A stretch of DNA of 64,000 nt from Okamejei kenojei (lineage: Eukaryota): contig CM069162.1 of the NCBI GenBank assembly GCA_035221665.1, forward strand, positions 22,754,001 to 22,818,000, in the 5' to 3' direction. The first letter of the stretch is position 1. Each line of letters begins with the position of its first letter. A model generated the notes under the pieces. The model did no database searches and was not told where the DNA came from. It was given only the letters and a program-made list of their open reading frames with translations. Shown piece after piece: positions 1-60,769 of this stretch. The position numbers were made by a program, and so were the translations under genes.

Positions 1-654
1 ACATTACAGATGCGTCCAGTTCTGTTAGTTGGTACTGCCTCAATAACAATCAGGAGCCCTGGTCAGCTTTTCTTTTTCCCTAACCCAAAGCTGTTAATGC
101 AGCAGCTCTGGCTAAAATCAGTGAATCAGTACCGACCAACGCTTAGTTCCTGATCTTCAATGATTTGAGCTGGGAGTGGGCATAATTTCCTTAAAATAAA
201 AAAAAATATTAAGATCAAAAGCCTTTTGTGTAGCGTATTGCTTGCCCCTGTAGAAATTTAGTGAAGGTAAGAAAGGAACAGGCAGTTTGTTGCACATTTT
301 AAAGATTTGTAGGTGGGAGGGAAACGTCTTTAATTTGGTCTGGGAGGACGATGAGTTTGAGCATGAAAACTCCAGTACTTCTCTCTGGAGAAAGCTATTC
401 CTGCTGAATGTTTATGGGATTTATTTGAGAGCACACTCGGGGAATAACTTAATTCCTATAACCGCTATTTATAAGCTGCATTAAATGGTCAAACTCACTG
501 TTAAACACTGTGCTGGTGTTTAACCAGTGATTTAGTCAGTGGAGTTTCAGTATATGCAGAATAAAATACCAATAGTTTATTATCTAAAAAATGTCAGTGA
601 CAAAGCTGCAATCCTAGCGCCAGAGTGATGAGTTAGGGGATGCGCCATAAGCAG

Positions 655-2554
655 ATAACCATATAACCATATAACAATTACAGCACGGAAACAGGCCCTC
701 TCGGCCCTTCCAGTCCGTGCCGACCATTTGTTTTCCCCTAGTCCCATCTACCTGCACTCAGACCATACCCCTCCATTCCCTTCACGTCCATATACCTATC
801 CACTTTACTCTTAAATGTTAAAATCGATCCTGCCTCCACCACTTCTGCTGGAAGCTCATTCCACACAGCCACCACCCTCTGAGTAAAGAAGTTCCCCCTC
901 ACGTTACCCCGAAACCTCTGTCCCTTAATTCTCATGTCATGCCCTCTTGTTTGAATCTTCCCTACCCTCAATGGGAAAAACGTATCCACGTCAACTCTGT
1001 CTATCCCTTTCATCATTTTAAAGACCTCAATCAAGTCCCCCCTTAACCTTCTGCGCTCCAAAGAATAAAGACCTTACTTGTTCAACCTTTCTCTGTAACA
1101 TAGTTGCTGGCACCCTGGCAACATTCTAGTAAATCTCCTCTGTACTCTCTCTATTTTGTTGATATCCTTCCTATAACTAGGCGACCAAAATTGTACACCA
1201 TACTCCAGAATTGGTCTTACCAATGCCTTGTACAATTTTAACATTACTTCCCTACTCCTATATTCAATGCTCTGATTTATAAAGGCCAGCACACCAAAGG
1301 CTTTCTTTACCACCCTATCTACATGCGATTCCACCTTCAGGGAATTATGCACAGTTATTCCTAGATCCCTCTGTTCCACAGCATTCCTCAATTCCCTACC
1401 ATTTACCATGTACGTCCTATTTTGATTTGTCCTGCCAAGATGTAGCACTTCACACTTATCAGCATTAAACTCCATCTGCCATCTTTCAGCCCACTTTTCC
1501 AAATGGCCCAAATCTCTCTGTAGACTTTGAAAATGTACTTCATTATCCACAACACCACCTATCTTAGTATCATCTGCATACTTACTTATCCAATTTTTCC
1601 ACCCCATCATCCAGATCATTGATGTACATGACAAACAACAGTGGACCCAACACAGATCCCTGAGGCACCCCACTGGTCACCGGCTTCCAACCTGACAAAC
1701 AGCCATCCACCATTACTCTCTGACATCTCCCATTCAGCCACTGTTGAATCCATCTTGCTACTCCGCCATTAACACCCAAAGATTGAACCTTCTTAACCAA
1801 CCTTCCATGGGGAACCTTGTCAAAGGCCTTACTGAAATCCATATAGACAACATCCACTGCTTTACCCTCATCAATTTCCCTAGTTACCGCTTCAAAAAAT
1901 TCAAGAAGGTTTGTCAAACATGACCTTCCAGGCACAAATCCATGTTGACTGTTCCTGATCAGACCCTGTTTATCCAGATGCTTATATATATTATCTCTAA
2001 GTATCCTTTCCATTAATTTGCCCACCACTGACGTCAAACTAATAGGTCTATAATTGCTAGGTTTATTCTTTGAACCCTTTTTAAACAATGGAACAACATG
2101 CGCAGTACGCCAATCCTCCGGCACTATTCCCGTTTCTAATGACATTTGAAATATTTCTGTCATAGCTCCTGCTATTTCTACACTAACTTCCCTCAATGTT
2201 CTAGGGAATATCCTGTCAGGACCCGGAGACTTATGCACTTTTATATTTTTCAAAAGTGTCAGTACTTCCTCCTTTTTGAATCTCATAGTTTCCATAGTTA
2301 CTCTACTTTTTCCCCTTAACTCACAGAGTTCAATTTCCTTCTCCTTGGTGAATACCGAAGAAAAGAAATTGTTCAATATCTCCCCCATCTCTTTTGGCTC
2401 TGCAGATAGCTGTCCATTCTGGTTCTCTAATGGTCCAATTTTATCCCTCGTTATCCTTTTGCTATTAATATAGCTGTAGAAACCCTTTGGGTTTACTTTC
2501 ACCTTTCTTGCCAAAGCAACCTCATATCTTGTTTTAGCCTTCCTAATTTCTTTC
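655..2554 (-). mobile_element. CR1-clade LINE (HER1-like), 5'-truncated, young copy: ORF2 reverse transcriptase, C-terminus, 3' UTR and (ATATGGTT)n tail
   Basis: ORFs 1582-2556, 1074-1673 and 738-1061 join into one RT ([45 protein letters not shown]). Only two lesions: a +1 frameshift in the T run at ~1594-1598 and a TAA at 1074-1076. Microsatellite tail ataaccatataaccatataac from 655. Confidence 0.95.
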
Positions 2555-2902
2555 ATATATATGATGAATATAGATGAATAAAAGAGATCACAAATTTATC
2601 TAGGATGCTACACTGTGCATTGCGTAATTCTGCTCAGTGCTTATTACAGAGTGCATAACCATTTAACCTAAAGTATTATTGCGGATCCTGCTTTTGAGAG
2701 GAATCATTCTCTGTAACTGGGTGTGAAGGTTAGTTCTGGGTTCAAGCTATTCTTCGGAGTCTGAACCAGTGTTGTAGTCTGGCGTTGAATGTCATTGCAC
2801 TCTTGGGTGCAATCTAGAACCTGATCAGAATCTGGAAAAGCACTTTAAACTCATGGTCTCTGACGGGCTTGCTCCTGCAGAATTTTAAAGCTTGCTAGGT
2901 CC

Positions 2903-2941
2903 AACGGATTCTCAGAACTTTTAACGGATTCTCAGAACTTT
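2903..2941. repeat. Tandem duplication of aacggattctcagaacttt (19 bp x2, 1-nt spacer)
   Basis: Exact copies at 2903-2921 and 2923-2941. Confidence 0.9.
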
Positions 2942-3457
2942 GGTCCACTGTAGTAGAACTGCTGGACAATATCAAGGACCCAGATTATGGCAGAATGGTG
3001 GGGAAGAGGTGCAAGTTTGGATGAGGAGGGCTGAGGGCAGGTTGGAATCTTGAGTTGGGTTGGGATATCAGTGGAGAAGAGAAACAGATCATGTCTGCAT
3101 TCCGTTGCTGGAAGCAGGATGGGATTTGGTTGAGGATTTTGGAATTATAATTGAATGGAGGGTTGGGGAGGAGTGTAGGTGACATCTGGGAAAGGGACTA
3201 TCAAGGCATAAGATGGGTACAAGAGAAATAATGCCCTTAGTGCTGGAAAGCAGGGAGAAGCAGCTCTGGCATGTGCTGTGGAGAATTACATCTGCATAAA
3301 CAGTCATGCCATACCTGGAAGTGCCGTCCAGGGGTTGAGTGCCATGAGGTGTTACTGTTTGTGACTGGGAGCCTCCATGTTTCAGCCTGTGAAGAAGGGA
3401 AATGGAGAGCTTTGTGATGTATAAATGTTGTGGTTGGCAATGTCATTTCCAAGCCAA

Positions 3458-3672
3458 AGATAGACACAGAGTGCTGGAGCAACTCAGTGGGTCAGACAGC
3501 ATATCTAGAGAAAAGGAACAGGTGACGTTTCGGGTCGGAACTCTTCTTAATCTGAACAGGAGTTCTGACCCTAAATGTCACCTGTTTCTTTTCTCCAGAA
3601 ATGCTGCCTGACCCACTGTGTTGCTCCAGCACTTTGTGTCTGTCTTCGGTGTAAACCTGCATCTGCAGTTCA
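3458..3672. mobile_element. Fold-back element made of two inverted Penelope terminal-repeat ends; hammerhead-like motif on each strand
   Basis: agatagacacagagtgctggagcaactcagtgggtcag...gtgacgtttcgggtc (3458-~3540) is the reverse complement of ...gaccctaaatgtcac...ctgacccactgtgttgctccagcactttgtgtctgtct. The right arm matches the 3' end of the Penelope at 15925-16037. Confidence 0.8.
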
Positions 3673-3689
3673 TTCCAATGCATTTGTGG

Positions 3690-3945
3690 GAAATGTGTAG
3701 GCCACTGTCTTTCAGATGAAATGTTGACCATGGCCCCTTTTTCTCCTTGAATAGAACTGTTCTATGTCCTGCCCAAGTCTGCATTACTGAAACCATCTCC
3801 CCATTTATCCTGGTGCAATTTAGATTAAATGGCTCTACATAAATTGGAAGCAATGTTTCACCACCTCTGCAGTTAGCAAATCTCAGCCTGTGAAACCATT
3901 TGTGATATTCCGCGGTTGTAAAAGGCACTGAATAAAATTGATACA
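3690..3945 (+). mobile_element. Ancient Deu-domain SINE remnant (SacSINE1/AmnSINE1-like)
   Basis: tgtctttcagatgaaatgttgaccatggcccc resembles the Deu-SINE block GTCTTTCGGATGAGACGTTAAACCGAGGCCCC; tgtgaaaccatttgtgatattccgcggttgtaaaaggcactgaataaa resembles the tail TGTGAAGCGCTTTGGGA...GAAAGGCGCTATATAAA (consensus recalled from memory). Confidence 0.5.
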
Positions 3946-4586
3946 TTTATTTTCTCATTTATTGAGAGATGTGTACCAGAATATGATGCCAATTGAAACA
4001 TCACAGCTAACTGCTTGTGTTGAAGAGTTCTCTTAAAGTTTTTTACTGTTTTCACAGAGGTTTTCCAGAGGGTGTGTACCGAAGGCATTGCAGTACTCAG
4101 GCAACTTTGACCTATGAGCAGTGTAGCTAAAAGAAAATTCAATATTGCTTTATTCAGTCTGTTTTAAATATTCATGATTTTACTGTCGGAAGGAGAAGTG
4201 CCGAGAAAAGCTGTTGCTAAACGGTATTCTTTCCTCAAATCTATAGAAAATAGATATTCAACCCCCCCCCCCCCCCCCCCCCCCCAACACCATAACAGTT
4301 CCACAAAAGTGACACACGATGATAATTACTTCCAGGTGGTTTCACTTCACTTGGTAATTTGTAATGGTCCACTGTAGGGAAATGCAGACCAAATTGCTCC
4401 AGAGTCCGGAGGTGGGTTTGCTTCTTTGGACACAGGTAGGACAGTCTGGTTTCAATTGCAAAGCACCAACTTTCATCCTTGGGCACACAAACCCCAACAA
4501 TTACTGTCCACTCTTCACTCCTTTTCTTTCCTGCCACCATTTGTCTCCTTTTCACCTATAGTTTTTGTCATCCACCCGTTCGCACC

Positions 4587-4764
4587 AGGGAGCAATTTAC
4601 AGAGGCCAGTAACCTGCATACCTGCAAGTCTTTGGCATGTGGGGTGAAACTTGAGCACCCGTAGGAAACCCATGTGGTCTCGGAGAGAACATGCAAACTC
4701 CACACGGACAGCAACCGAGGTCAGGTTCGAACTCACGCCTCTGATGCTGTGAGGAATCTGCTCT
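4587..4764 (-). mobile_element. HE1-type V-SINE, partial
   Basis: Reverse complement has a B-box (gttcgaacc) and the V-domain ggagtttgcatgttctc...tgggtttcc. Confidence 0.75.
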
Positions 4765-4770
4765 CCAATC

Positions 4771-4890
4771 TGTCTGAAGAAAGGTCTCAAAACATCATCT
4801 GTTCATACCCTCTCCAGGTGCTACCTGACCCGCTGAGTCCCTCCAGCACTTAGTATTTTGTTCAAGATTCCAGCGCCTGAAGTTCCTTGA
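4771..4890 (+). mobile_element. Penelope terminal-repeat fragment with degenerate hammerhead motif
   Basis: ctgaagaaaggtctc...ctgacccgctgagt...ctccagcac, same family as 3458-3672 and 50598-50694. Confidence 0.65.
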
Positions 4891-4949
4891 AGTCTCCACA
4901 ACTCTCTCGTCATCTACTTTCCCTCTACTCCTTATACGGTCTTGTGTTA

Positions 4950-5290
4950 GCAGAATGAGACGATTCAGTCCAACAAGTCTACTTTGTCATTCAATCATGG
5001 CTGATCTATCCTCACTCCTAACCCCATTCTCCTGTCATCCCCCCATAACCCCTGACATCTGTACTAATCAAGAATCTATCCATCTTTGCCTTAAAATTAT
5101 ACATTTACAGCGTCCGCAGCCTTCTATGGCAAAAAATTGCACAGATTCACCACCCTCTGGCAAAAGAAATTCCTCTTCATCTCCTTCCTAAAGGAATTCT
5201 GAGACTATGACCTCTAGTCCTAGACTCTCCTACTAGTGGAAACATCCTCTACCACATCCCCTCAATCAAAGCCTATCCACTCTATCCAAC
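4950..5290 (-). mobile_element. CR1 LINE 3' fragment
   Basis: cattcaatcatggctgatcta...cacagattcaccaccctctgg...tagtggaaacatcc; reverse complement of the CR1 ORF2 end and 3' UTR. Confidence 0.8.
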
Positions 5291-5654
5291 TGATTTTCTA
5301 ACAAAACCCAAAATTCTAACCCCCATCCCCATTCTCTGCCCATTTAAAAATTCCAAATGCTGATTCCTTCCAACCAGACGGGCCTCATGCAAGTCCCATT
5401 CTCTTCCCAGTCCCAACTCATCACAAACGCTTCATTGTTTTATTGTGCATTGCTCCCAGGCACAGGCTCGCTCCAGTGGGCACCAACGGATGGTGTATTT
5501 TCTGTGCCAAACATTTGTAACTTACATTTTGGATGATGGCCAATGACCAACACTTGTCATTGGATGTCCTTCTTAGCGCACAAGAATTTCTTGTTAAATG
5601 TCTGATAAGTGGTGGATGCATGGATCGAGTTGCCAGAGGCACGTGCAATAACAG

Positions 5655-5805
5655 TATTTAAAAGACATTTGGACAGGTACAGGGATAGGAAAGGTTTAAA
5701 GGGATACAGGCCAAACACAGATAGGTAGGTCTAGTGTGGATAGGGCACCTTGGTTGGCATGATCAAGTTGGACTGTAGGGCCTGTTTCTTTGCTCTATGT
5801 CTCTT
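5655..5805 (+). mobile_element. CR1 LINE 3' tail fragment
   Basis: tttaaaagacatttggacaggtac...gggcctgtttc. Confidence 0.75.
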
Positions 5806-7027
5806 AAGTGATTGGCATCGGGTAGATTTAGCGTTTCTTCGGGCTTAACGGGCAGATTTAGTTATAAGCCAGTGTTATACTCATTGAAAAGAAGAAGAAA
5901 AAACAATCTTTGCAAGTAGATGGAGCTTATTTTCATGCACAATTTTTAAAAATGTTTAACTTGGCTCTTCTATTCAAAGCTGTGAATTGTGCACATTTCT
6001 ATTTTTTTCTTCTGCCCCAAACAATGTGTTATTTTCCTTGTTCTTTGAGTACACTCTGACTTGTACAGATTACGGTACTTGTATTGCAGGTCCCAGGCAC
6101 TGCCTCACAATAGCAGTGGACGATAATACATAATTCATGGCATTTTGCTGCACCATAAGGCTTTTGTATTGGCGACCACAACGAATGAAAGGGTCTGGCT
6201 CCAGATGGAAACTTGGCATGATCTTCAATCGCAACCCTTCCCTCCCAATCTGTGCTGTATAGCTATGGAGTACTTTTTTTTGGAAGCAGGAGAGGAAAGC
6301 TGAAGAAACAGAATACTACATTAAAGAACTGGCATTCCTTTTGTAGGCATTCATTGGCTGTACTTAAGGGATCACACAGCAGTTAGTCTCTTCTCCCTTT
6401 AAGCAAATTGAAATGCTCAGAGGGTGGACATGTTAGACTGCAAATAATAGCAGTATTGATTTTGTCTGAGTGTCCTCAATTGCAGTTTAAAACAAATGAC
6501 TCATTAAATAGTTTGTGACAAAAGGATCATCGTCATCTTTTGGTTACTCCCTGACCCCCGCCCCCTGCTCCTTCCACCCCACTGTCTTTTATCTATCTCT
6601 CTCGCTGACTCTTTCTCATTCAAACAATCATCCAGTGTAGCCGTACAACTATAATTTTACACCATGATGTCAGAGCCAGCCAGTTTGGCTGGCTGAATGT
6701 ACTCCCTGATACCTCCTCTGTGCTCATGGGTCACAGATTGGGTTTTTCATCGTTCTGCGGTACCTTCCTGATGGCGACAAAAACATATTGGACGAGTTCA
6801 TAATTTCCCTTGGGTTCTATTTGTGACCTCTTGTGACTTCTGCTCGGTTTTCCAAATAAGTGCAGGATCCAAAAAAGCAAGGGGAACAGAGAATGCTGGG
6901 GTCACTGAGTTCTAGAATATTAACGAGACTAAGTGGGACCCGTTGGGTTCTTGTCACACAGGAAGCTTGGTCCCCCAACGCAATATTCCACCACTCCTCA
7001 CAGTCCCGAACTGCAGAGGCTCAGCTC

Positions 7028-7560
7028 ATTTCCCCTCATCCCTAGCACTCTCTCCTCCTCCTCTTCACCCTCCCTCTTCTTTCCCCTCTCCTTCCCCCCC
7101 AATCCTTCACTCACCTCTCTCTCCATCTCCTTTCCCCTACCCTCAGACACTCCCTCCATAACTCCTCTCCCCTCCCTACCCCCCTCCTATCTCTCTATCC
7201 CCCACTCCTCACCTTCCCCTATTCCCCCCCACTATCCCTCCTCACCTCCCCCAGTACCCTCTATTCCCCACTCCCTACCTCCCCCACTCCTCCCTCCTCT
7301 ACTCCCCCTCTCCTCTCCCTCTATTCTCCCTCCTCCCCCACTCTCCCTCCTCACCTCCACCCTCTTCTTTTCCCTCTCCGACCCTCCCCCAATCCCTCCC
7401 TCACCTCTCCTTTTCCCTACCCTCAGTCACTCCCTCCCTCCTTTCATAACTCCTCTCCCTTCCCTACTCCCCTCCTCTTCCTCTATCGTCTCTCCTCCCC
7501 CACACTCCCTCCTCACCTCCCCAGGATCTCGATGTTGTCCCTCCTCTCCCTCCTTGCATT
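7028..7560. repeat. Polypyrimidine (C/T) low-complexity tract
   Basis: Over 500 bp almost devoid of G; produces the spurious Pro/Ser/Leu ORFs. Confidence 0.9.
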
Positions 7561-8079
7561 CCCCGGAGGAGCATCAGCTGTTGGTGCCCTTAGAGCCAGG
7601 ACTCTGATCCGCTGCTCGTCCCGGAAGCACCAGCAGCTACGGCCATGTCGGCATGTGGGTGGGGGTGGGTGGCGAGCTCGGGGAAAACATGGGGGGAAGA
7701 GCCATTGGGGAGAGGGGGGTATCACGTGCAGAGGGGGGGGCAGGAGCCAGCGAGGGGGACCAGAGGGGAAGGGGCTGGAGATGCGGGGCGTGGCGGTGGG
7801 GGCACGTTTTGAGACTCACAGTGGGCATTGGATGCTCTCCTCTGGGCCGGGCAGCTTCCAGTCCCTCCGAAAATTGTGTCCAGTTGGGGACGTCTGCCGG
7901 CTGCCCACAGCGTCCCTCAGCTCCAGTAAAGATTCGATGGCGCAGGAAGGGGCGGATCATCCCGGTGAGTGACAGGAGAAGAGACCAATCCGTGCGGCAC
8001 TGACTAGCAGGAGAGGAGATTAATCTGCGCACGTGCGTTTTAAAAGATTCTTAAACCTCGCTGACTTTTACAATATACT

Positions 8080-8583
8080 CAGAGATGCCAAGTGTCCCAG
8101 ATTCGCCGTATTTTGTCCCGGCGAAATAACCTTTTTACGGTGTTCCGGCAGCCAAACATGCTGTTACGGAACACCGCCGCGCCGGTGTTCCTCCCGTGGT
8201 GAACGCCGGCGCCATGTGCCCCCGGTTTGCCAGCCCGGCAGCTCGCAGCCACGCCCGGCCCAGAGCCCGGGCGGCGCCGGCCCGCGCGATCAGCGGCACT
8301 TTCTTGCCGCCAGCCGGCCGCTCGCGGCAGCCCCATCACCGGGCCTCCCCCCCCCCCCACCCCCACCCAGTGCGCAGGCGCAGACCCGCCGGCAACCTTG
8401 CCAAGTGCGCATGTGCCGCACCCGCCCGCCGGCAGCCCGCTGATCTGCACCAGTGCGCAGGCGCATAGCCGCCGGCAACAACCCCAAGTGAGTATGTTAC
8501 GGAGAGAAATGCATTTAACCCCATTTGTTACGGACAAATGGGTTGAATGTTACTGTGAACTAAATTTAGGGTTGGCATCTCTG
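8080..8583. mobile_element. 504-bp non-autonomous DNA transposon (MITE) with 12-bp TIRs and 6-bp TSD, nested in the Helitron
   Basis: TIRs CAGAGATGCCAA (8080-8091) and TTGGCATCTCTG (8572-8583); TATACT on both sides (8074-8079, 8584-8589); repeated subterminal tgttacgga motifs. Superfamily uncertain. Confidence 0.85.
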
Positions 8584-9199
8584 TATACTACCGATCGAAA
8601 TGAAACTTGTTGCGCTCGCTGGACAGGAGAACAGTGAGTGAGCTGACAAAAAATAGTAGCGCTATCGCACACCGTTTGTGCGCAAATAGAAAAAACTCGC
8701 AAACCGGAAGAGCAGAAGATCAGAGTTTTAGTTATGTATAGGTAGATGGATAGATAGATAATGTTCCTTCTTCTCAGAGGCTGCTTGACTGGAAAGCCAA
8801 CAGAATCTTCTGTTTATATTTCAGATTTTCAGCATTTGTGGGTGTTTTCATTTCAATCCCGAATGTGTAACTGAGATGCAAGTGAGTAGAGCGTTCCCTG
8901 CTCAAGCTCAAGCAAGTTATGGTTGGTCTTCGTATTGGGGACCACTTTACCCTGATCCAAGCAAAGTTTGGTTCGGAGAAACGTACGGCCCTAAAATATT
9001 TCCAGCCTGCTGGGATTTCCAAAGCCCACTGACTGGCTACAGGTCAAAGCCCCTTCACATAATATGCACGGGTGGGGTCAGCTACTCATTTAGTACCCCA
9101 CGTTTGAGTTGGACCAGCATGCAGAAGCTGCCAGACTGGCCACTTTGTTGAAAGGTAGAAATAACCCGTCCCGAGCCCGCCCTGACCCGAATCATCACC

Positions 9200-9295
9200 T
9201 GCGAGTCCAAAGAAGGGTCCTGACTCGAAACTTCACCTATCCTTTATCTCCAGAGTTACTGCCTAATCCGCTGAGTTGCTACAGCATTTTATGCT
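9200..9295 (+). mobile_element. Penelope terminal-repeat fragment with degenerate hammerhead motif
   Basis: agaagggtcctgactcgaaacttcacctatcc...ccgctgagttgctacagcatttt. Confidence 0.65.
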
Positions 9296-9907
9296 GACTT
9301 TGTCTGTTTTGCAAGTGGCTTCTTGACAGTTTAGAAAAACAAAATTGCACATTGCTATGGAGTATTTGGAGAAACAATCCTTTTGAAAGACCTAATGTGC
9401 ACTGACCTATGGGAAAACCAGATGTTACGCTTGTACCTTTTTCATGGTTTCACTGCGACCCTTCTGTCTGCTGAATGTCTGGAAGAGTTTCCCCAGTAGA
9501 GATGATCCCAGCAGTGTGGTCTGTTGAAACCACTGCAATAACATCACACGGAATTCAAATTTTCATTGATTGTGGAGCTTTGAATGTAACTGTTGTGTTC
9601 TCATGCATATTAATCCATTTATATTAAACTGGATATCAACTGTTTTAAGATGTTATGTAGAAAATTATCACAGAGCAAGTGAGCTCAGTATTTGTAAGTG
9701 AAGTCTGCTGATCAATATTTCTTCCCTGTCATGCTAAATACTCCAGATAATGCATCCCTCTGGGGCTAATGCTGACTGGGAAATCTGTTATTGATCATGT
9801 TGATCAACCTTGGTAGAAATGTCAATGATAAAATGCAGTATTACAGAGTGAGTTTCATACCTACCTGTTGAATTTTATATATATATATACATTGTAAAAC
9901 AGGAAAG

Positions 9908-9996
9908 ATACAATAATATTGTTCTAATAATATTTTTATCTGCTTCTCTTTCATGTCTCATCACATTTATCTACATTGAACATTTTGCAGGTAAGT
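9908..9996 (+). promoter_or_regulatory. Candidate recursive splice site (3' acceptor abutting a consensus 5' donor)
   Basis: AG-free, pyrimidine-rich tract 9908-9988 with ttctaat branch-like motif, ending ttttgcAG|GTAAGT; same strand as the SKI exons. Confidence 0.5.
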
Positions 9997-12900
9997 GTTT
10001 TAACATTTCCATGAATGGCTTTGTATCAGACTGAATCGGATTTAAATCAGATTTTATGCGCTCATACGTTAACTCTATTATAGGAAGGCTTGTTAATGTT
10101 GAAAATAACATGAAAATATATTTGAAATGGAGAATTCTGTTTTTGTTGTAATTAGTCACATATCTTGTAACTTGCATGTGAATTTTTAAACAAGCCAGAG
10201 AAGTAAATGGACTGAAGTATTTTTCTGGGAAAGCTAACTAGACTAGGATTTAACAATACTATTTTGTAAAAGTATTAATAATAAATAGTAAAAGATCATT
10301 TCTTGTATTGGCTGATGGAGACATCGGGCTTATCAGTTTAAAATTACTGCAAAAAGACTTACACAACGGGTCGGAAGCTGGCATGCTTTGCTTTGTGACT
10401 GGCGAGTGGAGATTTATAATTCTGAAGGGAAATTTGGATAAATATTTAACACAGGAGGCGTTACCGGCTATGGAGGAAGAGCAGAGCAATGCAGTCAGTT
10501 TCAGAGTTTTTGTATTGCAAGCTTCTGAAGATCGCTGAGGCTTGCTAATGGTCAAGAGATTTTCTTAGCACAAAGTATAATCAGGTTAATAGTTATAAAC
10601 ACGGTTTCTTAAATAAAAACACAAATAGCTCAAAGAAATTGAATCAGTGGAGGCGAAAGAGATGAAAAGCAGCTGTCTGTAATAAAAGGGAACATTGCTC
10701 AATGGGATCTTGGGAATTTGGAACTACACAGCACCACGCATGTTACATATGAGCAAGTGTTCTTTGCTGCCTTTAATTGAAATTCTCCTGCTATTCCAGA
10801 CGCGTACAACGTTGAAAGTAAATAATGGAACACTTGGAGTTTAGGTGTTTAAATGTATATGTACATGCTTCTCATTCACTGCCAGCTGCTGCTTAACGCA
10901 GCCAGATTAACAAATGCCGACATTTGGCAGTCTGTCTGTTAGTTTTAAATTGAAACAAAATTGCCCAGTTGCACAATTCTGGCTTGCTGCACTGGTAGTT
11001 GGTTCAGAATGAAACTAGTGTTTAGTGCCAATGTATAATTGGGCAAATTATCATTCATTTATATATAAAGAAACACATGCCATTTTAAAAGAAAGATGTG
11101 GGCTTTGTACAGTGCAACCACAGTATCCTGTTTTCTACTCTGTGCACTTATAGTTTAGTGACATTTCTGTAATTATCGATGGGAATGTTTGTATGTCTTG
11201 TATTGATCTGTTTTGATGAATAGCTGGTGGCAGGCGTCCAGTGTGAATACCCCTTCCCCCACCTCCCAAACCTCCTTTCCCCCCTCTCTGCAATGCTGAA
11301 TGAGTCAAGCCATTGGAATGTCTGGAGCATTGAGGAAAAGCAAAGCTTGTCTGGGAAAGTACTGTAATTTCTCTGGGGCATTGGAAAAGTTCTTTACTGT
11401 TTCAAACTGTCCATTAAAATTCAAGGCTGTGGCTTTATTAGTTTGAATTAGTTTTTGTGTGCAAATTGATGTGTGTGCCTGGGACAGTGGAGGTTACCAG
11501 AAGGAAGAGTGAAGTGCATCTTATTTACTTTTGCCGGTACCATGTGCTGTAACTCAATTTAATTGTGGTGCACAGTGTCAAGTACACAGCAGAATTGTCT
11601 TTCTTTAATTTGATGTAGTCTCCTTCAGGGAATGACCAAATTCAAATGCATGTTGCAGCTACCCCTGTCTCTGCAGATGGAGTTTAAAAAAGCAATTTTA
11701 AATTTTTGGTGGAGCAGCAGAAAACTTTGTTCTGTTTTTTTGTAATATAGAAATTTACAGCACAGGAAGAGGCTGTTTGTCCCTTCAAGTCTATGTCATC
11801 GGAAAGGCTGCTCAGACTGTATACACATGCTTTTTACTGAACTGTAAGCAAAAAAATAATGTCACTGTACCTAGGTACATGTGACAATAAAGTGCCATTG
11901 AACGATTGCTCTGTAGTCTCGTGGCTCTAGTCCGTTGAGAGCATATCCAGGCTCAAAATGTGGTATGTGTTGACTTGCTTTTCTACCTTTTCTATGCCGC
12001 TTTTAACAGCAAAATCAATCTTCCTGTCATCTGCTGGTCATGGCACCCATTATTTCCACGTGTTTTTCTCAAAAGATGCTGAAGCTTTTAATGTTCTACT
12101 TGCGACAACTTAGTTAGCGGTGGGGGAATGTAGATGGTGTTGGGGGAATCTTCTGATACCCTGAAACCTCTGCCCTGGGCAACACTGTTCAAACACGCTC
12201 CACCATCTACTAAGTGGGCAACCTGGCTTTTGGCAATGAGGCCCAGCCTGGCAGCGGCAGGGTTGCCATGGTGCAAGCAGGCCACACGCGGATTTTGACA
12301 TCCACTGCCCCTCATTGCCTTGAACCAGGCTCACCGGTCTCCGAAGCTGTGACAGGGTTACTGAACATGTTGGTGAGCGATCAGGACCAGTAGTGGCTTT
12401 TTAATGTAATAAATAAAAAATACTATTTAAAAAAAATTATATTTTTAAATAGCATTCAACATGCTAAACCGATTCACTAAAAACATTGAAATGTTTAAGT
12501 AAAAAATAAACAAGTGATCACCTCCCAGCAGTGAATGACATCCGCCAATGGCACCTGACGAGGTTTACTGAAGGCAGACGTTACAATCTTTGAGCAGGGA
12601 GAGCAATTGTTCCCTGCCCGCTCCTTTGTTTGCATGCCCGTTACATCCTTGTAAATTATAATTATTTCCCTTAATTTGATTTACCAATATTTTATCATGC
12701 ACTTTAACTTTTTTGCTTCACCCTGAACATATATATATTCTTGTAGACTTATTTTGGACAGAAGCTTTTTTCATGCATTATCCCACCAGTCTTTGACATC
12801 TAGCTGATACAAATTTCAAAATCTAATGCATTTTATTAATGAGAATATGTATCTGGAATTTTGCCTAAAGTGCTGCACTAAATGTGCTGTATTCATTCCC

Positions 12901-13176
12901 ATTGCAAGAATTTTGGAGGCAGGACACAGAGTACGCATCCAACTACATTGGGTATTGATTGGAACCTACAATGACCCTTTATAAATGACTCCTGTAAACA
13001 GGCTTGGGATGAGAAGAGGTGGTGCGTGAGTGATAGAGTGAATGTTCAAGGCAGTGGATGGGCTGTCTTGGGTGATGTGTTAAAGTTGCAGTCGTGCAGG
13101 AAAATGGCACGTATTCCATCACATGCTTGTCGAGCACTTCAGAGATGGTGAAAGGCTTTGGGGGTAGGGTGATAGT

Positions 13177-13450
13177 TTAGGTTATTATTGTCACGTTTAT
13201 CAAGGTACAGTTAAAAGCTTTTATGTCACATGCTAACCAGTCAATGAAAAGACTTTGCACAATTACAATCAAGCTGTCCACAGTGTACAGGTGCAGGATA
13301 AAGGGTATATCATTTAGTGCAAGGTAAAGTCTGATTAAGGATGGTTCAAACGTCTCCAATGAGATAGATGGGTGGTCAGGACTGCACTCTAGCTGGTGAG
13401 AGGATGGTTCAGTTGCCTGATAACTGCTGGGAAGAAATTGTCCCTGAATC
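13177..13450 (-). mobile_element. Rex1/Babar-type LINE 3' end
   Basis: Minus strand encodes a FRDNFFPAVIRQLN-like C-terminus; the 3' UTR stem tgtac..gtgacaataa is shared with 11855-11895, 57815-58075 and 58428-58525. Confidence 0.6.
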
Positions 13451-14683
13451 AGATGAGTCATTGATCTTTCTGTCTACTGATTAAAACATCTTTCAAATAT
13501 ATTTTAAATAATTACCCATTACCTAGAACTTTTTAATTCCTTATTTTCAAGTTTATGAAATCTTCTTCTATCACTGTCTCTTATAATTTGCATTTCAGTT
13601 TCCCTCTAATAGTCCTTAGTGGGTCCAGTGGAGATGTATTCTGCACCTCAATTCAACCAATGATCACATCTGATGATTTTTCTGGTTCACACAACAGAAA
13701 TTGTTTCATGAGCATGAAGTCAGCAGAGGTGAATGAGTTATTCAACAATGTTTTCAGTTCTGAAAAGATGCCCCCTTTTTGATGCAGCTTTGGAAACACA
13801 GTTCAACACAAACTGGCATTTGAACATGGGCCTGTGTTCCTGATATCTTCTCTGCAGTGTTTTGCATGAACTTTGGAAGATCTTAGCTAAAACTGTTTTC
13901 TTGGAATTTACGACTCTGTGGAAAGCCATCCGGCCAATTGGTCGATGCCCATGTTATGAATGAGCTGCATTCCACACCACCTCATCCAACATTGTGAACG
14001 TCACCAGCTCCACTTCGGTCTGCAGTGGATAACCGTCGATCACTTTAAATACATTTTGGGGGACAATTCATATCTACATTATTGAGGTTGTAATTGGTGT
14101 CTGAGAGTGTGCATTTACATAAACACCACATCAGGGTCCACACTAGTTGTCTGAGGTATTTGGGCAGCAGTCTCCCTCTCATGTACAATGCCGGAGGTAC
14201 AACTGACCTCGCCCAGGAAACGTTCACAAAGGTCTTTCCTTGCAGTGTGGTGCAAATTGGGCCCTGTTGTGCCAGCCTTTGGCACCATGAGATCCAGCTT
14301 CAATGAGAGCCATTTTAGTGATGAGTCCCCTACACACAAAGGATCTGCTGAAAGACACCATGTTTGCACTGGGTGCTCCCCAGAACCAGTGCTGCACCTA
14401 TGCACATTAGTGCCACCATTCAGATCCTGCAGATCACAATGACCAGTGAGAAATAACACACTTCCTTGAAGCTATCTAGCCGAAGCACAGCATTGCAGAG
14501 ATGGCCAGGTGTCAGGCAGGCTCTGCTCTGGATTCTGAAATAGTCCCCAAGTTCTTTTTTTAAATTGAAGAAAGCAATAAAGTCATAGCATTGAGCCAAG
14601 AAGAACAGGACATACCTCAGGAAAGAGTACTAGATGTACCGATCCTCCTGATGTCCTGAGATTAATTTCTCAGCAAGCTGTTT

Positions 14684-16125
14684 CATAAGTTCATATGTTA
14701 TAGGTGCTGAAATAGGCCATTCCGTCCATCAATTCCAGTCCGCTATTCAATCATGACTGATCTATCTTTCCCTCCCAACCCCATCCTCCTGCCTTCTCCC
14801 CACGACCCCTGACACCCTTGCTAATCAAGAATCTGTCAATCTCCACCGTAACAATATCCATTGACTTGGCCTCAACAGCCTTCTGTGGCAATGAATTCCA
14901 CAGGTTCAGCATCCTCTGACTAAAGAAATCCCTCCTCATCTCCTTTCCAAAGTTACGTCCTTTTATTCTGAAGCTATAGCCTCTGATCCTGGACTTGCCC
15001 ACAAGTGGAAATATCCTCTCCATGTCTACTCTATCCAGGTCTTTCACTCCGTCTACGCTGCATCTGCACCCAGGATGAGTTTTTCCATTTCAGGTCATCG
15101 GAGATGTCCTCATTCTTTAGGAAACGAGGTTCCCCTCTTCCATTATAGATGAGGCTCTCACTAGGGTCTCCTTGATATCCTGCTGCTCCGCTCTTGCTCC
15201 CCCTCCCACCCATTCATAACAAGGACAGAGTGCCCCTTGTCCTCACCTTCCACCCCATCAGCCGTCGCATACAGCATATAATCCACCAACATTTTTGCCA
15301 TCTCCAACGGGTTCCCACTACTGGCCACATCTTCCCATCGCCACCCCTCTGATTTCCACAGAGACCTTTCCCTCTGCAACTCCCTCGTCAACTCGCCCCT
15401 TCCCACCCAAACCACCCTCTCCCCAGGTACTTTCCCCTGCCACCGCAGGAGATGCAACATCTGACTCTTTACCTCCTCCCTCGACTCCATCCAAGGACCC
15501 CAACAGTCTTTTAAGGTGAGGCGGAGGTTCACTTGCACCTCCACCAACCTCATCTACTGTATCCGCTGTTCCAGATGTCAACTGCTGTACATCGGCGAGA
15601 CCAGGCGCAGGCTCGGTGATCGTTCCGCTGAACACCTCCGCTCAGTCTGTCTTAACCTCTCTGATCTCCTGGTTGCTCAGCACTTTAACTCCCCCTCCCA
15701 TTCCCAATCTGACCTTTCTGTCCTGGGCCTCTTCAATTGTCAGAGTGAGGCACAGCGCAAATTGGAGGGACAAACAGCACGTTATATTTTGCTTGGGTAG
15801 CAAGTATGAACATTGACCTAACTTCAAATAGCCCTCTCTCTCCATCCCCTCCCCCTTCCCAGTTCTCCTACCCCTCTTACTGTCTCCAACTACATTCTAT
15901 CTCTGTCCCGCCCACTCCCCTGACATCAGTCTGAAGAGCGTTCTCGACCCAAAATGTCACCCATTCCTTCTCTCCAGAGATGCTGCCTGTCCCGCTGTGT
16001 TACATTTTGTCCCGCTGAGTAGACATTTTGTGTCCACCCAGGTCTTTCACTTTTCGGTAAATTTCAATGTGGACCCCTCATCCTTATAAACACTCAACGA
16101 GTACAGGCCCAGTGCCGTCAAACGC
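14684..16125 (-). mobile_element. CR1 LINE 3' fragment interrupted by a Penelope insertion
   Basis: ORF 14751-15047 (DRVDMERIFPLVGKSRIRG...FFSQRMLNLWNSLP); CR1 sequence resumes at 16052 after the duplicated target. Confidence 0.85.
15049..16037 (+). mobile_element. Penelope-like element, 5'-truncated: RT thumb/linker, GIY-YIG endonuclease and 3' terminal repeat with hammerhead motif
   Basis: KDRVPLVLTFHP...; FTCTSTNLIYCIRCSRCQLLYIGETRRRLGDR (GIY-YIG); 14-bp TSD CCAGGTCTTTCACT at 15035-15048 and 16038-16051; ctgaaga...aaaatgtc at 15931-15958. ORF is disrupted. Confidence 0.9.
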
Positions 16126-16637
16126 TTGTTTTTGTGCAGTTAGGACGGGCTCCAACTTGCAAGCCAAGTTGACAGTGAAATCAGCTCGGGGACTTTGAGC
16201 ATCCCAGTTCATTGCCACCTTTGTGCCCACAAACAAACAATGAGAAATGTGTACCCCAGTGTGCACAAAGCATTTGTCTGCTGAGAGGTGAGCAAAGGGT
16301 CAGTCCACGCTTATAATTGCGGTTTTGTTCAATGAAATGCACTGTCTGGTTTTGGACTAACTGACCAGACAGTCTCAATAAACAGTCTGCATTTTATGGT
16401 TGGATGGCAAAGTTCATATTTTGTGACTAAAGATCTTATGGTTGGCGAGTATATTTGCTGCACTGAAGACATACAGTCATTGAGGAAATGCTGCAGAGAG
16501 GAGACTAATTTCCTATAAAGGATATTTATATGACACATGTACAGAACCCTGTGCCGGTCCTTGCAACTGGATGATGCATAGGTTAAATTTTTGTATAAAC
16601 TGTCTTGCTCCAAAAAAAATAACTTTAAAGATCTCTC

Positions 16638-16895
16638 NNNNNNNNNNNNNNNNNNNNNNNNNNNNNNNNNNNNNNNNNNNNNNNNNNNNNNNNNNNNNNN
16701 NNNNNNNNNNNNNNNNNNNNNNNNNNNNNNNNNNNNNNNNNNNNNNNNNNNNNNNNNNNNNNNNNNNNNNNNNNNNNNNNNNNNNNNNNNNNNNNNNNNN
16801 NNNNNNNNNNNNNNNNNNNNNNNNNNNNNNNNNNNNNNNNNNNNNNNNNNNNNNNNNNNNNNNNNNNNNNNNNNNNNNNNNNNNNNNNNNNNNNN
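16638..16895. other. Assembly gap
   Basis: Run of N. Confidence 1.
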
Positions 16896-17439
16896 CTTTC
16901 AAATAAAATGTATGCAAATGTTTTAATTTATCAGGATCTGTAATTAAATGAAATTGCATTTTATCTGATCAACCAGAAAAAGTAATGGGGTTTTCAGAGA
17001 TCTCTGGCATTACAAATGTTATCAAGTCCTTTAAATATCTAAGTTTGCTTAATTATAAATCACTAATTAATAGTCGTGAAAGGGCAACTGAAAAAGATGG
17101 AACAATGTGGAATCACAAAAGTGTGATTTTATGTTTGTTTTGTTTTAATGTTCTTATTCTCCAGGAAGGAGCATTCTTTATGACATATTCTTCACCCATG
17201 CGTAGAACCATCAGCACTCTTAATTCCCACATTCTTATCTTGAGTAGTATTTCAAAAGAATATACACTTAATATTAATAATGAGAGAAGGCTTTTCAGTC
17301 TCATTCGGCTGACTTATTTTTGTTATGATCTATGTCAGGATCCACATGGACTATTTAGGGCTTATATTACCTGATTTCTTTAAGCACCATCCTCGTCAGC
17401 CTGCTTGATCATCCTACCCTTTAACACAACTGGTCAAAT

Positions 17440-17728
17440 TCAGGGCTGGTAGAGCTGCTGCCTCACAGGGCTAGAGACCCAGGTTCGATCCTGACCTTGG
17501 GTGCTGTTTGTGTGGAGATTGCACATACTTCCTGAGACACGTAGGTTTTCTTAGGGGTGCTCCGGTTTCCTCCCAAACCTCAAAGACGACGTGTTTGTAT
17601 GTTGATTGGCTGCTGCAAATTACCCGGAATGTTTAGCGACTGGATGCAAAAGTGCGATAACATAGAACTAATGTGGTCTGCCTGGATTTGGTGGGCTGAA
17701 TGGCCTATTTCCATGCTAAATCCCTAAA
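17440..17728 (+). mobile_element. HE1-type V-SINE
   Basis: tRNA-like head (ggtagagctgctgcctcaca...ggttcgatcc), V-domain, CR1-like tail ggcctatttcc. Confidence 0.85.
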
Positions 17729-18118
17729 GATAAATAACAAATGGGACACTTCCCCCCCCCCCCCCCCCCCCCCCACCTTGTTTCCTACCCATTTATACTC
17801 ATGGCAACCCTGGTTCTGGCTTTGCTTCCTTTCACCTCCAAAGTTTCCCAAGGCTTCCCCTCTGGAGACCATCCATTCTCTCCCTCATCTGCATGCAGCC
17901 CTTCAGTGATGTGTGTTAACCTGTGTGACAGCATCCACATGTTTGTTGATATTGATCGCCAGCATCACCACCTCTGTTATTGGATAGCTTAGTTGATGGT
18001 CTCGGATAAGCCTCCCAGCTGAATGATTGGACAACGATCCAGGAGCAATCCAGCATCTAAACATGAGAAATGTGATGTGACAAGAATACACATGCAACTG
18101 AGATACAAGTTTATTGTG

Positions 18119-18412
18119 TTTAGACTTTAAAGATACAGTGCGGAAATAGGCCCTTCGGCCCATCGAATCTTCGCAGATCAGCGATCACCCCTTCCTAGCA
18201 CTAGGAACACTAGGGACAACTTACAATTTTACCGAAGACAATTAACCTACAAATCTGCATGTCTTTGGAGTGTGGAAGGAAACCAGAGCACCCAGAGAAA
18301 ACCCACGCAGTTGCAGGGAGAACATACAAACTCCGTATAGACAGCACCCCTGTAGTCAGGATCAAACCTGGGTTTCTGGAGCCGTAAGGCAGCAACTCTA
18401 TCGGTGTGCCAC
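18119..18412 (-). mobile_element. HE1-type V-SINE
   Basis: Reverse complement of the family at 60426-60737. Confidence 0.9.
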
Positions 18413-20820
18413 AGCGTGTGCTGAATATGTGATATACTCTCAACGTGTATAAATCGCAGTTTCATATCTACAAATATTTTTTTTTTAAATATAATTTTTT
18501 TTTAAATATAATATCTCCCATTTCCTTCTCTCTGTTGTCTAGTTGACAGCCAAGATTAGACTAGGTCAGTTTCCCCTCTAGATCACCTAGTTAATTGAAG
18601 GAACCACTGTAACCCTTAGAACAACCCGAGGGAATCCACCAGTGAGTCACCAGCGAAGGCCCATCATTTGTGCCTTTTGTGTTTATTTAAAACGAAACCA
18701 AAATTATGTAAAAACTACCAAGATATTATTGCAGTTATTGCATGATCCAAATCTGTTCTACACCCAAATTATACTTAAGGTTTATTTGCTCTGAAATCTG
18801 TGTCTCCTTATTTACTGCAAGCTTCCAGCAGATTGCCTTCAGGAAGGTATTAACCTACTTTTACATTTGCATTACCTCTTGTCTTCAGCATGCTGCTAAA
18901 TCTATTTTTGTTCATCTGGTATTCTGTGAGAGAAGTTTCTGAGGTATGTTTTTTAAAGAGATCAGAACTTGCAACCAAGCAAAACAGAAAATGGAGAGGG
19001 GAGTCTTCATTTTAGTATCATAGAGTCATTTTCAGGAAAATGTAGGATTCTTGGGTCTAACATGGAGCCTTGTCTACTTGAGGTACCCCTTCGGAAGAAT
19101 GATCCATTTTGACGCATGTTGTCAGAAAAGTTGCAATCACTATGTGGTGAGAGAGGCTTGCACTGTACGGTGTCAGAACATACACAAATGGATTAGAGAT
19201 TCTGCGTTGGGCCAATGGCTGTATCCTCCTGTCATTTTTCAGGGCAGTGGGACATGGAGTGGACCATTGAGGGTTCTATTGCGGCATCAGCACATGATCG
19301 CTGTCTCCCACTGCCATTCACTGCTGCCTTGGGCTTGCTCGACCAAGCTGAAGCAGTCCGCTCATTTGCAACGCAGGGCAGCTCCTGCAAGTAGTACCTG
19401 CATTGATCGGGGGCCAAGGTTGCATTTGTTGCCGGCACTTCTAGCTTAATGCATCATACACACCGAGATCCTGGCAGCAAATTCATGGGCAGCATCTAGC
19501 ACACTCTCTAGTGAAGTTCCTTCAGCCCACTTTGTCCATGCTGACCACTTTAGCATACTGGGTTCGTCCCATTTGCCTGCACTTTGGGTATATTTGACAG
19601 TGATAGAAATGTTATAGTTGCAGTGATGTAAGGAGGTTAATCTACTGAAGTTGCTTTTAAAATTGTGGGCTGCTTCAAGTTGAAAGAAACTTTTAAAACA
19701 TGTCCTCTATAATTTCCTTTAAAAATAGCATAAACAATGTTATCTGTGAAAGGGAGTATATGTGTTAATCTAAATCAACTAAACTAGAAGTCTAAACGTA
19801 GGTCTTTGGCACTATGACCTTTGTCAGTTATTTGATTAGTGTGAAGAAAAAATGATACTGAGTTCATGTAAATCTTTGCAAGCTGCTTGTTGACAAGATT
19901 CAAAATGTAGAAAGAGATAAAGACTTGAATTGTGCAAATGAGATTGAGGTTTGCTGAATTTTGCATTCAGAGATTTCTTTGCAAGCAGCAAAGATACTAT
20001 TATTCTGGCAAGAATAACCAAGAGCGGAAGAGATAAATCAGGTGTTTTATGTTTCCAGGCTAATCACTAACTTCAGTGTCTTACGCTCATTGCTTTTTGG
20101 GGACTAATTTGTAATTATTTGGAGAATAGATGAATAATAATATATGGTTATCAGATCTCACTCAATCACTTGACCAACATAAGGAAAATGTACTAGAAAA
20201 TCACCGTTTTTTGGCAGAGTTTAAATATTATGCAATGAGAAATTTTGAAGCAGTCATATAAATCTGTACCCTAGAATGCTCTGAAAATTCACATTAACTA
20301 ATAGACTGGTGACCTGTTTCCTTTTTAGTTATCTTTCTTCCTTGGCTTAAAGCTTGGTACTTATTCACTTCCAATACCCTGTCAATAGGCTGTAAACCAC
20401 ATCTGACGGCTCAAAGTAAATCTTTCTAACCTGCTTAATTTAGGGGTACAAAGCCAGATACACACCTGTTTTCTACACTCCCATCTCTCCAACCTGGCTT
20501 CGAAAAGCTGATCAGAAGTAGGAACCCTTGCAGCATCTCACCTCCTTGGCCCCTAGCCATGAAGCTGTTATTGTGATCTCACCATTGCATTTGCCCTCGA
20601 TCAACTAACTTAGGACAATTCTGAGGCCATCTTGACCCCCTGCTCTCTATCATCGGATATCAGTCACCAAGATAGACACTGGGATATTAGGAAGAATGCT
20701 GAATATTGATTTCATTGAAAGTATATGCATATGGTCAATATATTGTTTAAAAACCTTTTCATTGCTTAAGCACCATTTCATAATGAAGGAAGTTTTAATA
20801 TTTTTTCAGCAATTTTTATC

Positions 20821-21106
20821 TTTAGTTTAGAGGTACAGCGCAGAAACAAGCCCTTCGGCCCACCGAGTCCTTGCCGACCAGTGATCCCCCAACGCTAGCA
20901 CTATCCTAAACCGTAGGAACAATTTACAATCTGTACCAAAGCCAATGAAGCTGCAAACATGTATGTCTTTGGAGTGTGGGAGTAAACCGGAGCACCCAGA
21001 GAAAACCCACGTGGTCATAGGGAGAACGTACAAACTCCATACAGACAGCAGCCGTAGTCAGGATTGAACCTGGGTCCAATGGCAGCAACTCTGCCACCGT
21101 GCTGCC
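20821..21106 (-). mobile_element. HE1-type V-SINE
   Basis: Near full-length reverse copy with (ctaaa)n tail. Confidence 0.9.
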
Positions 21107-22097
21107 GTAAATTTAATATTAAATATTTCAAGAGCTCTGGGTAACAATGCAGGACACTCCTATCAAGAAAAGCTTTGCAGTTTACATATGGATTTGCAAC
21201 TCCATCCAAAAGTCTGGGTGAAATTTCTGGTGCAAGATCATTACTGTGAACTAGCTGAGTGTTTGGTTCACTGAGCTGTAATCAGTGGGTATTGGAAGTG
21301 GCTTTGTGGAGAAGAGGTCAGTTGTCTGTCACATTTCCGCATTTGCACCATTACTCGGAGGTGAGCCAGCCTAGATTGCTGTGACCCATACAATGTTGCG
21401 ATGGTCTAAAGCAGGTGCCTCTAAGCCACATTATTTGGTACACTTGGGCAGGCACTGACCAAATGAGGCCAAGTGACAAGATGGACCTCCTCACCTGCGG
21501 CTGCTGCCACTGGAAATGTTGGTAAGGACCATGTTACTCAAGTGCTGATGCCTCGCATTCCTTATTCGGGTTCAAGAAGACGAATGGCTCCCTGACACCC
21601 AGAGTTGATCTGACCTCCAGCTGAAAGTATTCCTCCCCTCTTTTTTCCTCCTGCCTAATGCATCAGCTGCTTCTGTTCTGTGTGCCCAACCTTTGTTCAC
21701 CCTTTGTGCCGTCTTCCAAGGGGAGGCCTGCTGAGGAAGTGAGTCTGGGAGCTGTTGGCTTGAACAAAGACCTTGCAGTCAGCAAAAGATCCTGCAGCAC
21801 CTGGAGCACCCCCTGCCATGGGATTGCGGTTTCAAACAGCTACGTAAAGCAGCAGACACAGAATTATAGCTAAGGCCAACAAACAATCAACCAGCAAACC
21901 AGCTGGGAGTAGTGGATGGTCCCTTTATATCGTGCCGTTGGAGGTCCTTCCTGTTGCATGCATTTCCAGTCCAGTGAGGTTCAGAGCAAACAACAATGGT
22001 GTCTAACGTCACGCTTACGTGCGCTACTTAGCATGCATTCTCAATGAAATGAGGTTCAGCATGCCATTTTTCCACAAGTGAACAAGTGGATCACTTT

Positions 22098-22255
22098 GGC
22101 AGCACAGTGGAGCAGCGGAAGACTGTACTGCCTCACAGCGCCAGTGACCTGGGTTTGATCCTGACTATGGCTGCTGTCTGTAGGGAGTTTGTGCATTCTC
22201 CCTGTGACTGCGTTGGTTTTCTCCGGGTGCTCCTGTTTCCTCCCACACTTCAAAG
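22098..22255 (+). mobile_element. HE1-type V-SINE, 5' half
   Basis: ggcagcacagtggagcagcgg...ggtttgatcctgac...cctcccacac. Confidence 0.85.
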
Positions 22256-22795
22256 AACAGTACAGCACGAGAACAGGCCCTTCGGCCCACAATGATTGTG
22301 CCAAACATGATGCCAAGACCATCTCTTATCTACCCTGCACATATCCATAATTCCTCCATATTTTATCTGCCTCAACTACCATCCCCGGTATCACCCCTTA
22401 ATCCACGTAACCTTCTGGTAAACCTTTTCTGCACCGTTTCATAAACCCCCCCCATAGCCTTCCTGGAATGGGGCGACCAGAACTGCATGCAACTCTCCAA
22501 ATGCAGCCTAATCAAAGTTGTGTCAAGCTGCATCATGACTTACTGACTCTTGTACTCAATGGCCAGACCTATGAAAACAAGCATACAATATGCCTTCTTT
22601 ACCACTACCTAGGTGTTGCCACTTTCAGAGGGATATCGACTTGGACCCCAAGATCCCTTATCGATGATGTTAAGGGTCATGCTCTTTTCCCTTTGCATTT
22701 AATTTCCCGAAGTGCAGCACCTCACACTTGCTCGGATAAAACTCTGCCATTTCTCCACTCTATATCCCGCTGTATACTTTGACAGTCTTTCTCAC
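22253..22795 (-). mobile_element. CR1 LINE fragment (3' tail plus deleted RT C-terminal region)
   Basis: agaacagtacagcac..aacaggcccttcggccc tail; ggcgaccagaactgca (VQFWSP) motif on the minus strand. Confidence 0.75.
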
Positions 22796-22807
22796 AATTG
22801 TTTGAAC

Positions 22808-60737: not shown

Positions 60738-60769
60738 CAAAAAATAATATATTTTCCTCTGAACCATTG

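Follow-up and report, generated by a model that had tools for sequence, protein, structure and literature searches.

A splice-like CAG/GTAAGT motif with a long AG-free zone in the first intron of skate SKI is a candidate recursive splice site but probably unselected

The closest described systems are the recursive splice (RS) sites of mouse and human. The available part of PMC8797253 reports 20 such sites in mouse cortex, located in introns of >51 kb within brain-specific genes of >294 kb. According to its S3 Fig, GTAAGT is present at 15 of the 20, and the pyrimidine fraction of the 20 nt preceding the AG (Y20) is ≥0.60 at all of them; the 15 sites of the form AGGTAAGT range from 0.75 to 1.0, and three of the form AGGTAAGG from 0.60 to 0.65. 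Weak downstream donors accompany 10 of the 20 (S4 Fig of the same paper). For human, the accessible sections of PMC6110456 describe 36,870 putative sites obtained by motif, acceptor strength and conservation, at an average of 1.7 per intron in the table of putative sites, with a branch motif enriched 20–50 nt upstream. Junction reads were recorded at 342 of the 36,870 and saw-tooth coverage at 16. In the 70 billion reads of ENCODE, some junction reads were found at 60% of the putative sites, so that trace use is common. The RS-site consensus is given in the available text of PMC5126111, together with a count of >1,200 human introns longer than 100 kb. Partial accounts of two further studies report that deletion of the CADM2 RS site lowers expression of its host gene and, in a lungfish preprint, that giant introns show no shift to conserved recursive sites.

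The accessible part of the S1 Table of PMC6110456 places at least two putative sites in human SKI intron 1, at chr1:2,186,375 and chr1:2,203,455, corresponding to 25,201 and 42,281 of 73,242 nt (0.34 and 0.58 of the intron). Their acceptors are moderate (7.2 and 6.7), and one of the two has a PhastCons value of 0.999. Human SKI was absent from the junction-supported table of that paper (three cell types), in the part available, and, as far as searched, from its saw-tooth table. The name Ski was also absent from the accessible content of eight supplements of PMC8797253 (which give candidates by coordinate and list 50 of 103 extra ones), from four supplements of PMC10156609 and from the supplements searched of PMC4482092, those other than file 1. 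In a literature search covering titles and the beginnings of abstracts, no paper on SKI recursive splicing or SKI intron removal was found, nor did the literature search find a recursive-splicing study for the skate lineage.

The DNA analyzed here is a 64,000-nt stretch from Okamejei kenojei (the window). In the 2.76-Gb genome, the best Ski_Sno match was found 73 kb before the window, on the same strand. Its open frame constitutes SKI exon 1, ends in AGG/GTAAGC (a slash marks the splice junction) and encodes 303 residues that are 100% identical to the start of P0001, a protein clustering with SKI proteins of skate, ray and shark. Residue 304 of P0001 begins at window position 62310, and the later SKI exons lie inside the next 11 kb; the distance from the SKI start codon to the last coding exon is ∼147 kb. 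SKI intron 1 is 135,056 nt long, well within the range of the long (>51 kb) first or second introns in which sense-strand RS sites are sought. The candidate site lies 61% along it on the sense strand, with 82,737 nt between it and the exon 1 donor and 52,319 nt remaining to the exon 2 acceptor. With exon 1 upstream and exon 2 located, the earlier note was right to assign gene, intron and strand as the sense strand of SKI intron 1. Six real SKI acceptors gave Y20 values of 0.65–0.85, and that of exon 6 has an AG-free zone of 88 nt. Elsewhere in the window, LINE reverse-transcriptase fragments were observed on the minus strand at 1077–2595, and a GC-rich high-copy repeat at about 7950–8830 could be mistaken for a CpG-island promoter.

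The motif reads CAG/GTAAGT with its AG at 9989–9990, and the nearest AG upstream is at 9906–9907. A stretch of ∼80 nt without AG, a ttctaat branch-like motif and an acceptor TTTTGCAG followed directly by a perfect GTAAGT had been proposed for this site, and all were recovered (Table 1). The proposed pyrimidine tract is likewise present, reaching 0.90 at 9933–9952, but this best portion is separated from the AG by ∼40–55 nt, and pyrimidines make up just 0.60 of the final 20 nt. Weaker branch-like pentamers are found 21–37 nt before the junction. The site has the juxtaposed AG/GT with U1-type donor of an RS site, and the strong acceptor with a tract adjoining the AG is missing. When both strands of the window were searched, a single AGGTAAGT was obtained, in agreement with the description of this site as the only strong acceptor-donor fusion noticed there. 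The region 9850–10250 gave one match in the genome and none in background loci, showing single-copy DNA, in line with the non-repeat setting that had been claimed. The observation itself, comprising motif, gene and strand, is therefore confirmed. A second site of the same class in SKI intron 1 (YAG/GTAAG at C32:22,719,619) lies outside the window, 34 kb upstream of it and 28% along the intron; it has a Y20 of 0.70, an AG-free zone of 54 nt and the best sense score on the rough splice matrix described below.

Table 1. Positions in the window of features at the candidate site and of the surrounding SKI gene
Feature	Position	Strand	Remark
SKI intron 1, 3' part	1..62309	+	preceded by exon 1, whose end is 73 kb upstream of the window
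Low-divergence block, possibly constrained non-coding	9681..9859	.	chosen after the fact
(TA)7 microsatellite	9876..9889	.	X7, X9 and X10 carry 224–247 other letters
AG-free zone, 81 nt	9908..9988	+	
Branch-like TTCTAAT	9922..9928	+	distal: 63 nt separate its A (9927) from the junction
Pyrimidine-rich tract, 0.80–0.90	9933..9962	+	mixed stretch between tract and AG
Acceptor-like TTTTGCAG	9983..9990	+	preceding 20 nt 0.60 pyrimidine
Consensus donor hexamer GTAAGT	9991..9996	+	GTAAGC in run X7
Hypothetical RS-exon, 212 nt	9991..10202	+	TGA 10012–10014 in frame with exon 1
Weak donor GAA/GTAAAT	10200..10208	+	GTAGAT in X1, X2, X3, X7, X9 and X10
SKI exon 2	62310..62438	+	
SKI exon 3	63346..63470	+	

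The 14-mer of the site occurs 26 times in the genome, as compared with 32 times for a scrambled-donor control. Among these 26 copies, the AG-free zone at the SKI site is the longest, the next longest being 37 nt. On the basis of 1.02 Mb of background, 1.6 AG/GTAAGT are expected per 135-kb strand, and 3 were found. SKI intron 1 showed no sense excess of either GTAAGT (21 sense versus 22 antisense) or YAGGTRAG (8 versus 11). A loose class, defined as YAG/GTRAG with an AG-free zone of ≥50 nt and Y20 of ≥0.6, is expected 0.29 times per 135-kb strand; in SKI intron 1, it was found twice in sense orientation and not at all in antisense. When GTAAGT was required in addition, the expectation fell to 0.026 per intron strand, and to 0.006 for the tightest class, with an AG-free zone of ≥81 nt; these class definitions were drawn after the site was seen. 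For one intron, the result is unusual; in a scan of many windows, such sites are to be expected repeatedly. By a rough splice matrix built on human frequencies, the site ranked 6th of 467 sense AGGT in SKI intron 1, one antisense site outscored it, and 1,118 of 8,361 AGs were better acceptors. A Y20 of ≥0.60 was observed at 20% of 4,021 background AGGT. The donor half of the motif is no more than chance would give, and the AG-free zone is the unusual part.

The same DNA was compared in runs from close relatives. In each of X7, X9 and X10, one contig spans the block with ∼97% identity over 2.5 kb, at which the probability that an 8-mer survives unchanged is 0.76. The contigs compared are DNA-like, and X1–X3 behave as low-depth DNA. 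Substitutions counted for X7 are those among the 40 differences listed out of 134, all of which involve X7 and run, apparently in order, to 10477; for the first segment, the list covers 12 of 14. Differences specific to X9 or X10 lie outside these 40. The site itself differs in X7 by C>T at position 9964 and by T>C at position 9996, the latter at donor position +6, where the resulting GTAAGC is still a good donor. Over the 100 nt before the junction, 1 listed substitution was observed in X7 versus 3.4 expected, which is not significant. X2, for which all 12 differences are listed, is identical to the window across 9954–10003. At position 9954, 37 nt upstream of the junction, its contig passes into 30 nt of a LINE present in 13,319 copies. 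This piece comes from inside the reverse-transcriptase frame, is AG-free and carries a CTAAT of its own. The LINE junction is carried by one contig at a depth of 4.7; if real, the insertion lies between the AG and both the branch motif and the greater part of the tract.

The least-changed stretch of the block is 9681–9859, not the candidate site. In X7, it has 0 listed substitutions (up to 2 unlisted) over 179 nt versus 6.1 expected (P 0.002–0.056), and X1 has 0 differences over the 221 nt of 9640–9860. This stretch is a possible conserved non-coding element. It contains an exon-like 101-nt segment (9747–9847) with a weak acceptor, an AGA/GTGAGT donor and, in the frame of exon 1, a stop. At 9860–9890, immediately before the AG-free zone, the lineage of the window has probably lost ∼220 nt. 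Downstream of the junction, 10004–10097 is the fastest stretch of the block, with 13 listed substitutions in 94 nt of X7 versus 3.2 expected; five of the substitutions there, common to all four runs compared, probably arose on the lineage of the window.

Reading from 9991, a stop is reached at the 8th codon, and the claim of a stop-containing exon is borne out to this extent. Such a premature stop is in keeping with a poison (NMD) cassette exon, but it carries no weight, being expected of almost any intronic stretch. The conservation that characterizes a poison exon, of its body and both splice sites, was not found, given the rapid change of 10004–10097 and a difference at donor position +4. 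The donor suggested for this exon, GAA/GTAAAT, does exist; it is, however, weak and altered in 6 of the 7 runs covering it, X5 alone matching the window. Position 10206 is G in those six runs, and X1–X3 additionally have G at 10202. On the rough matrix, the best donors within 400 nt scored 0.6 (10178) and 0.5 (10203), whereas the donor rebuilt by joining exon 1 scored 6.4 versus 5.3 for exon 1's own. The matrix is crude, since the true donors of SKI exons 2 and 3 score just 0.9 and 1.5 on it. An optional exon in the same intron position is known as the avian SKI alternative exon 2 (P0024, P0026 and P0108; reference title in PMC5992185). The avian exon is coding and in frame (36–37 aa), whereas the skate sequence after 9991 stops after 7 codons, and no match to it was found in skate SKI intron 1.

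Rfam gave no match at E 0.1 or better over 9300–11800. BLASTN of 9345–11830 revealed no similarity to 90 kb of the SKIL region, which served as a test against the paralogue, or to the rest of the SKI region and 40 background loci. A coding exon at or near the site was considered and rejected, since none of 14 SKI isoform proteins matched the intron interior (best E 0.44). A metagenome search with a 19-nt core returned eight matches, seven over 19–22 nt and one over 36 nt; the flanks of the latter bear no likeness to the site, and this match was taken as chance.

Sites with saw-tooth coverage (mouse Lsamp, Cadm1, Cadm2, Pde4d, Ank3, Opcml, Ntm, Robo2 and Hs6st3) were assembled for comparison from the available parts of PMC8797253 and the S3 Table of PMC6110456. 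The skate site has in common with them YAG/GTAAGT in sense orientation within a first intron of >51 kb, as well as a strong rebuilt donor and a hypothetical RS-exon with a stop. It is unlike the saw-tooth AGGTAAGT sites (Y20 0.75–1.0) in its Y20 of 0.60, equal to the lowest among the 20 mouse sites, and in the distal position of its best tract and branch motif. The host gene also differs, skate SKI being shorter than the mouse RS genes and not known here to be brain-specific. A similarly weak tract (Y20 0.60–0.65) is seen in the S3 Fig of PMC8797253, in the part available, at Ncam1 and Hs6st2; given that both are used, a weak tract does not exclude use. These two are AGGTAAGG sites found by junction reads and saw-tooth coverage, whereas the skate site was found in sequence. 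Given the 0.65–0.85 of real SKI acceptors, a Y20 of 0.60 is weak here but not impossible. Genome-wide, 12 sites match Y12-NYAG/GTAAGT, 3 of which have a long AG-free zone. One of the 12 (C15:48,004,035–48,004,056) shares the strand of ANK3, precedes its ZU5 exon by 311 kb and has a Y20 of 0.95; by position only, it probably corresponds to the conserved ANK3 RS site of human and mouse. If so, a strong tract is retained at real sites of this lineage.

On present evidence, the site is probably an unselected, cryptic motif that resembles a splice site; the part of SKI intron 1 around it is AT-rich and single-copy, and that intron is likely removed without dependence on the motif. A weak tract by the AG and the lack of a partner donor would lead to poor exon definition, and exon 1 would then mostly be spliced straight to exon 2; any splicing to 9991 may be rare, unproductive or stochastic. 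A chance look-alike is likely because the acceptor half is weak and the surroundings differ in close relatives. The 14-mer is not enriched, strong donors show no sense-strand excess, and better acceptors exist elsewhere in the intron. Its Y20 falls below that of the mouse AGGTAAGT and ANK3-linked sites, and its downstream donors are weak. The change of the 10203 donor, the +6 substitution in X7, the LINE junction in X2 and the presence of human SKI in the putative table only point the same way. Against an unselected motif stand the length of the AG-free zone, the expectation of 0.006 for the tight class and the two loose-class sites versus 0.29. Moreover, real SKI acceptors extend down to 0.65, half of the 20 mouse sites are followed by weak donors, and in 3 of the 20 Y20 is ≤0.65. 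Before the junction, X7 shows 1 substitution versus 3.4 (not significant), its GTAAGC is serviceable, the LINE end in X2 is AG-free with CTAAT, and the human positions are similar.

Were the site instead in regular recursive use through a distal branch point, exon 1, with its final AGG, would join the AG at 9990 via the branch A at 9927 by scanning through the AG-free zone. The rebuilt AGG/GTAAGT would then outcompete the donors at 10178 and 10203 and join exon 2, so that the intron would leave as pieces of 82.7 and 52.3 kb, or as three pieces if the 28% site were used. The sense orientation in a 135-kb first intron, the GTAAGT shared with 15 of 20 mouse sites, an AG-free zone without equal among the 26 copies, a rebuilt donor better than that of exon 1 and the unchanged 9954–10003 of X2 would fit such use, as would the similar relative positions of two putative sites in human, one of them with high PhastCons. 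By contrast, the tract by the AG is weaker than at all 15 mouse AGGTAAGT sites and the probable ANK3 site, and the branch motif is outside the 20–50-nt interval enriched at human sites, although weaker branch-like pentamers of the skate sequence fall within it. SKI spans ∼147 kb here, as against >294 kb for the brain-specific mouse genes, it is absent among the junction-supported human or mouse sites searched, and X2 possibly has a LINE insertion. A rough estimate gives a similar picture: about 20 saw-tooth sites versus >1,200 introns longer than 100 kb set a prior of ∼1–2% per intron, which multiplied by 0.75 for GTAAGT and ∼0.3 for a long AG-free zone becomes about 0.003–0.004, and this against 0.026 by chance yields 10–15% for recursive use. 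The weak tract and the donor changes lower that value, as does the possible insertion, and the similar human positions raise it. The indirect tests lean against regular recursive use, which is on balance unlikely.

CAG/GTAAGT in its genomic context tops all donors of 9500–10400 (8.9), and it could serve an ordinary cryptic or internal first exon upstream, linked to the slowly changing 9681–9859, with its 0 listed substitutions over 179 nt in X7 and 0 over 221 nt in X1. An acceptor at 9746 would give an exon of 244 nt, or one of 101 nt with the alternative donor GT at 9848; both forms stop in frame after exon 1. This is quite improbable: the 9746 acceptor is weak (−2.0), relatives have ∼220 extra nt within such an exon, no SKI isoform protein among the 14 matches the intron interior, and the block, a post hoc choice, may act as an enhancer. 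In telescripting, U1 snRNP protects long introns from premature cleavage and polyadenylation. The nine-base U1-type consensus, followed by poly(A)-signal hexamers at 10280, 10612 and 10681, would suit a U1 binding site kept to guard the intron in this way, with no splicing involved. Yet SKI intron 1 has no sense excess of strong donors, AATAAA is common in it (130 sense versus 157 antisense), and the AG-free zone would be left unexplained, making such a role most improbable. Unselected sequence thus remains the preferred account of the motif.

The human SKI sites, which are predictions from motif and conservation, lie in the same gene and intron as the skate sites, at 0.34 and 0.58 versus 0.28 and 0.61; the two pairs are likened by position, the human table being without sequence, and the resemblance is a lead only. 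It is very improbable that stepwise removal of SKI intron 1, in as many as three steps, dates back to the first jawed vertebrates, with the skate 28% and 61% sites being counterparts of the human 34% and 58% sites and the 61% site acting via a distal branch point rather than an adjacent tract. If this three-step reading were true, recursive splicing would operate in a dosage-sensitive TGF-β repressor, outside the giant neuronal genes, and in a form under-rated by acceptor-strength filters. If used, the site would be a recursive site in a gene that is off the junction-supported lists searched and in a lineage for which no such study was found. If conserved, it would be a candidate element for the non-coding control of dosage in a disease gene, to be compared with the effect of the CADM2 deletion. 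At present, it belongs to the many candidates known by motif only, of which ∼1 in 100 in human gained junction support in the accessible data of PMC6110456.

Several other strong motifs were observed in this genome. Three combine a strong acceptor with GTAAGT (C11:68,848,683 and C12:72,681,201 on the minus strand and C1:127,717,709 on the plus strand), with AG-free zones of 50–66 nt and downstream donors within ∼100 nt. A textbook RS-like site occurs at C1:61,833,504–61,833,517, on the strand of ANK2 and 330 kb before its ZU5 exon. None of the 20 mouse RS sites in the available part of PMC8797253 belongs to ANK2. Judged by location relative to the ZU5 exons alone, the ANK2 and ANK3 candidates could be a paralogous pair; no sequence similarity was detected between them. 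Both are stronger candidates than the SKI site. At the ANK2-linked site, the acceptor has a pyrimidine fraction of 0.88, CTAAT occurs at 22 nt, and GTAAGT opens a 62-nt exon that extends to AAG/GTACCT.
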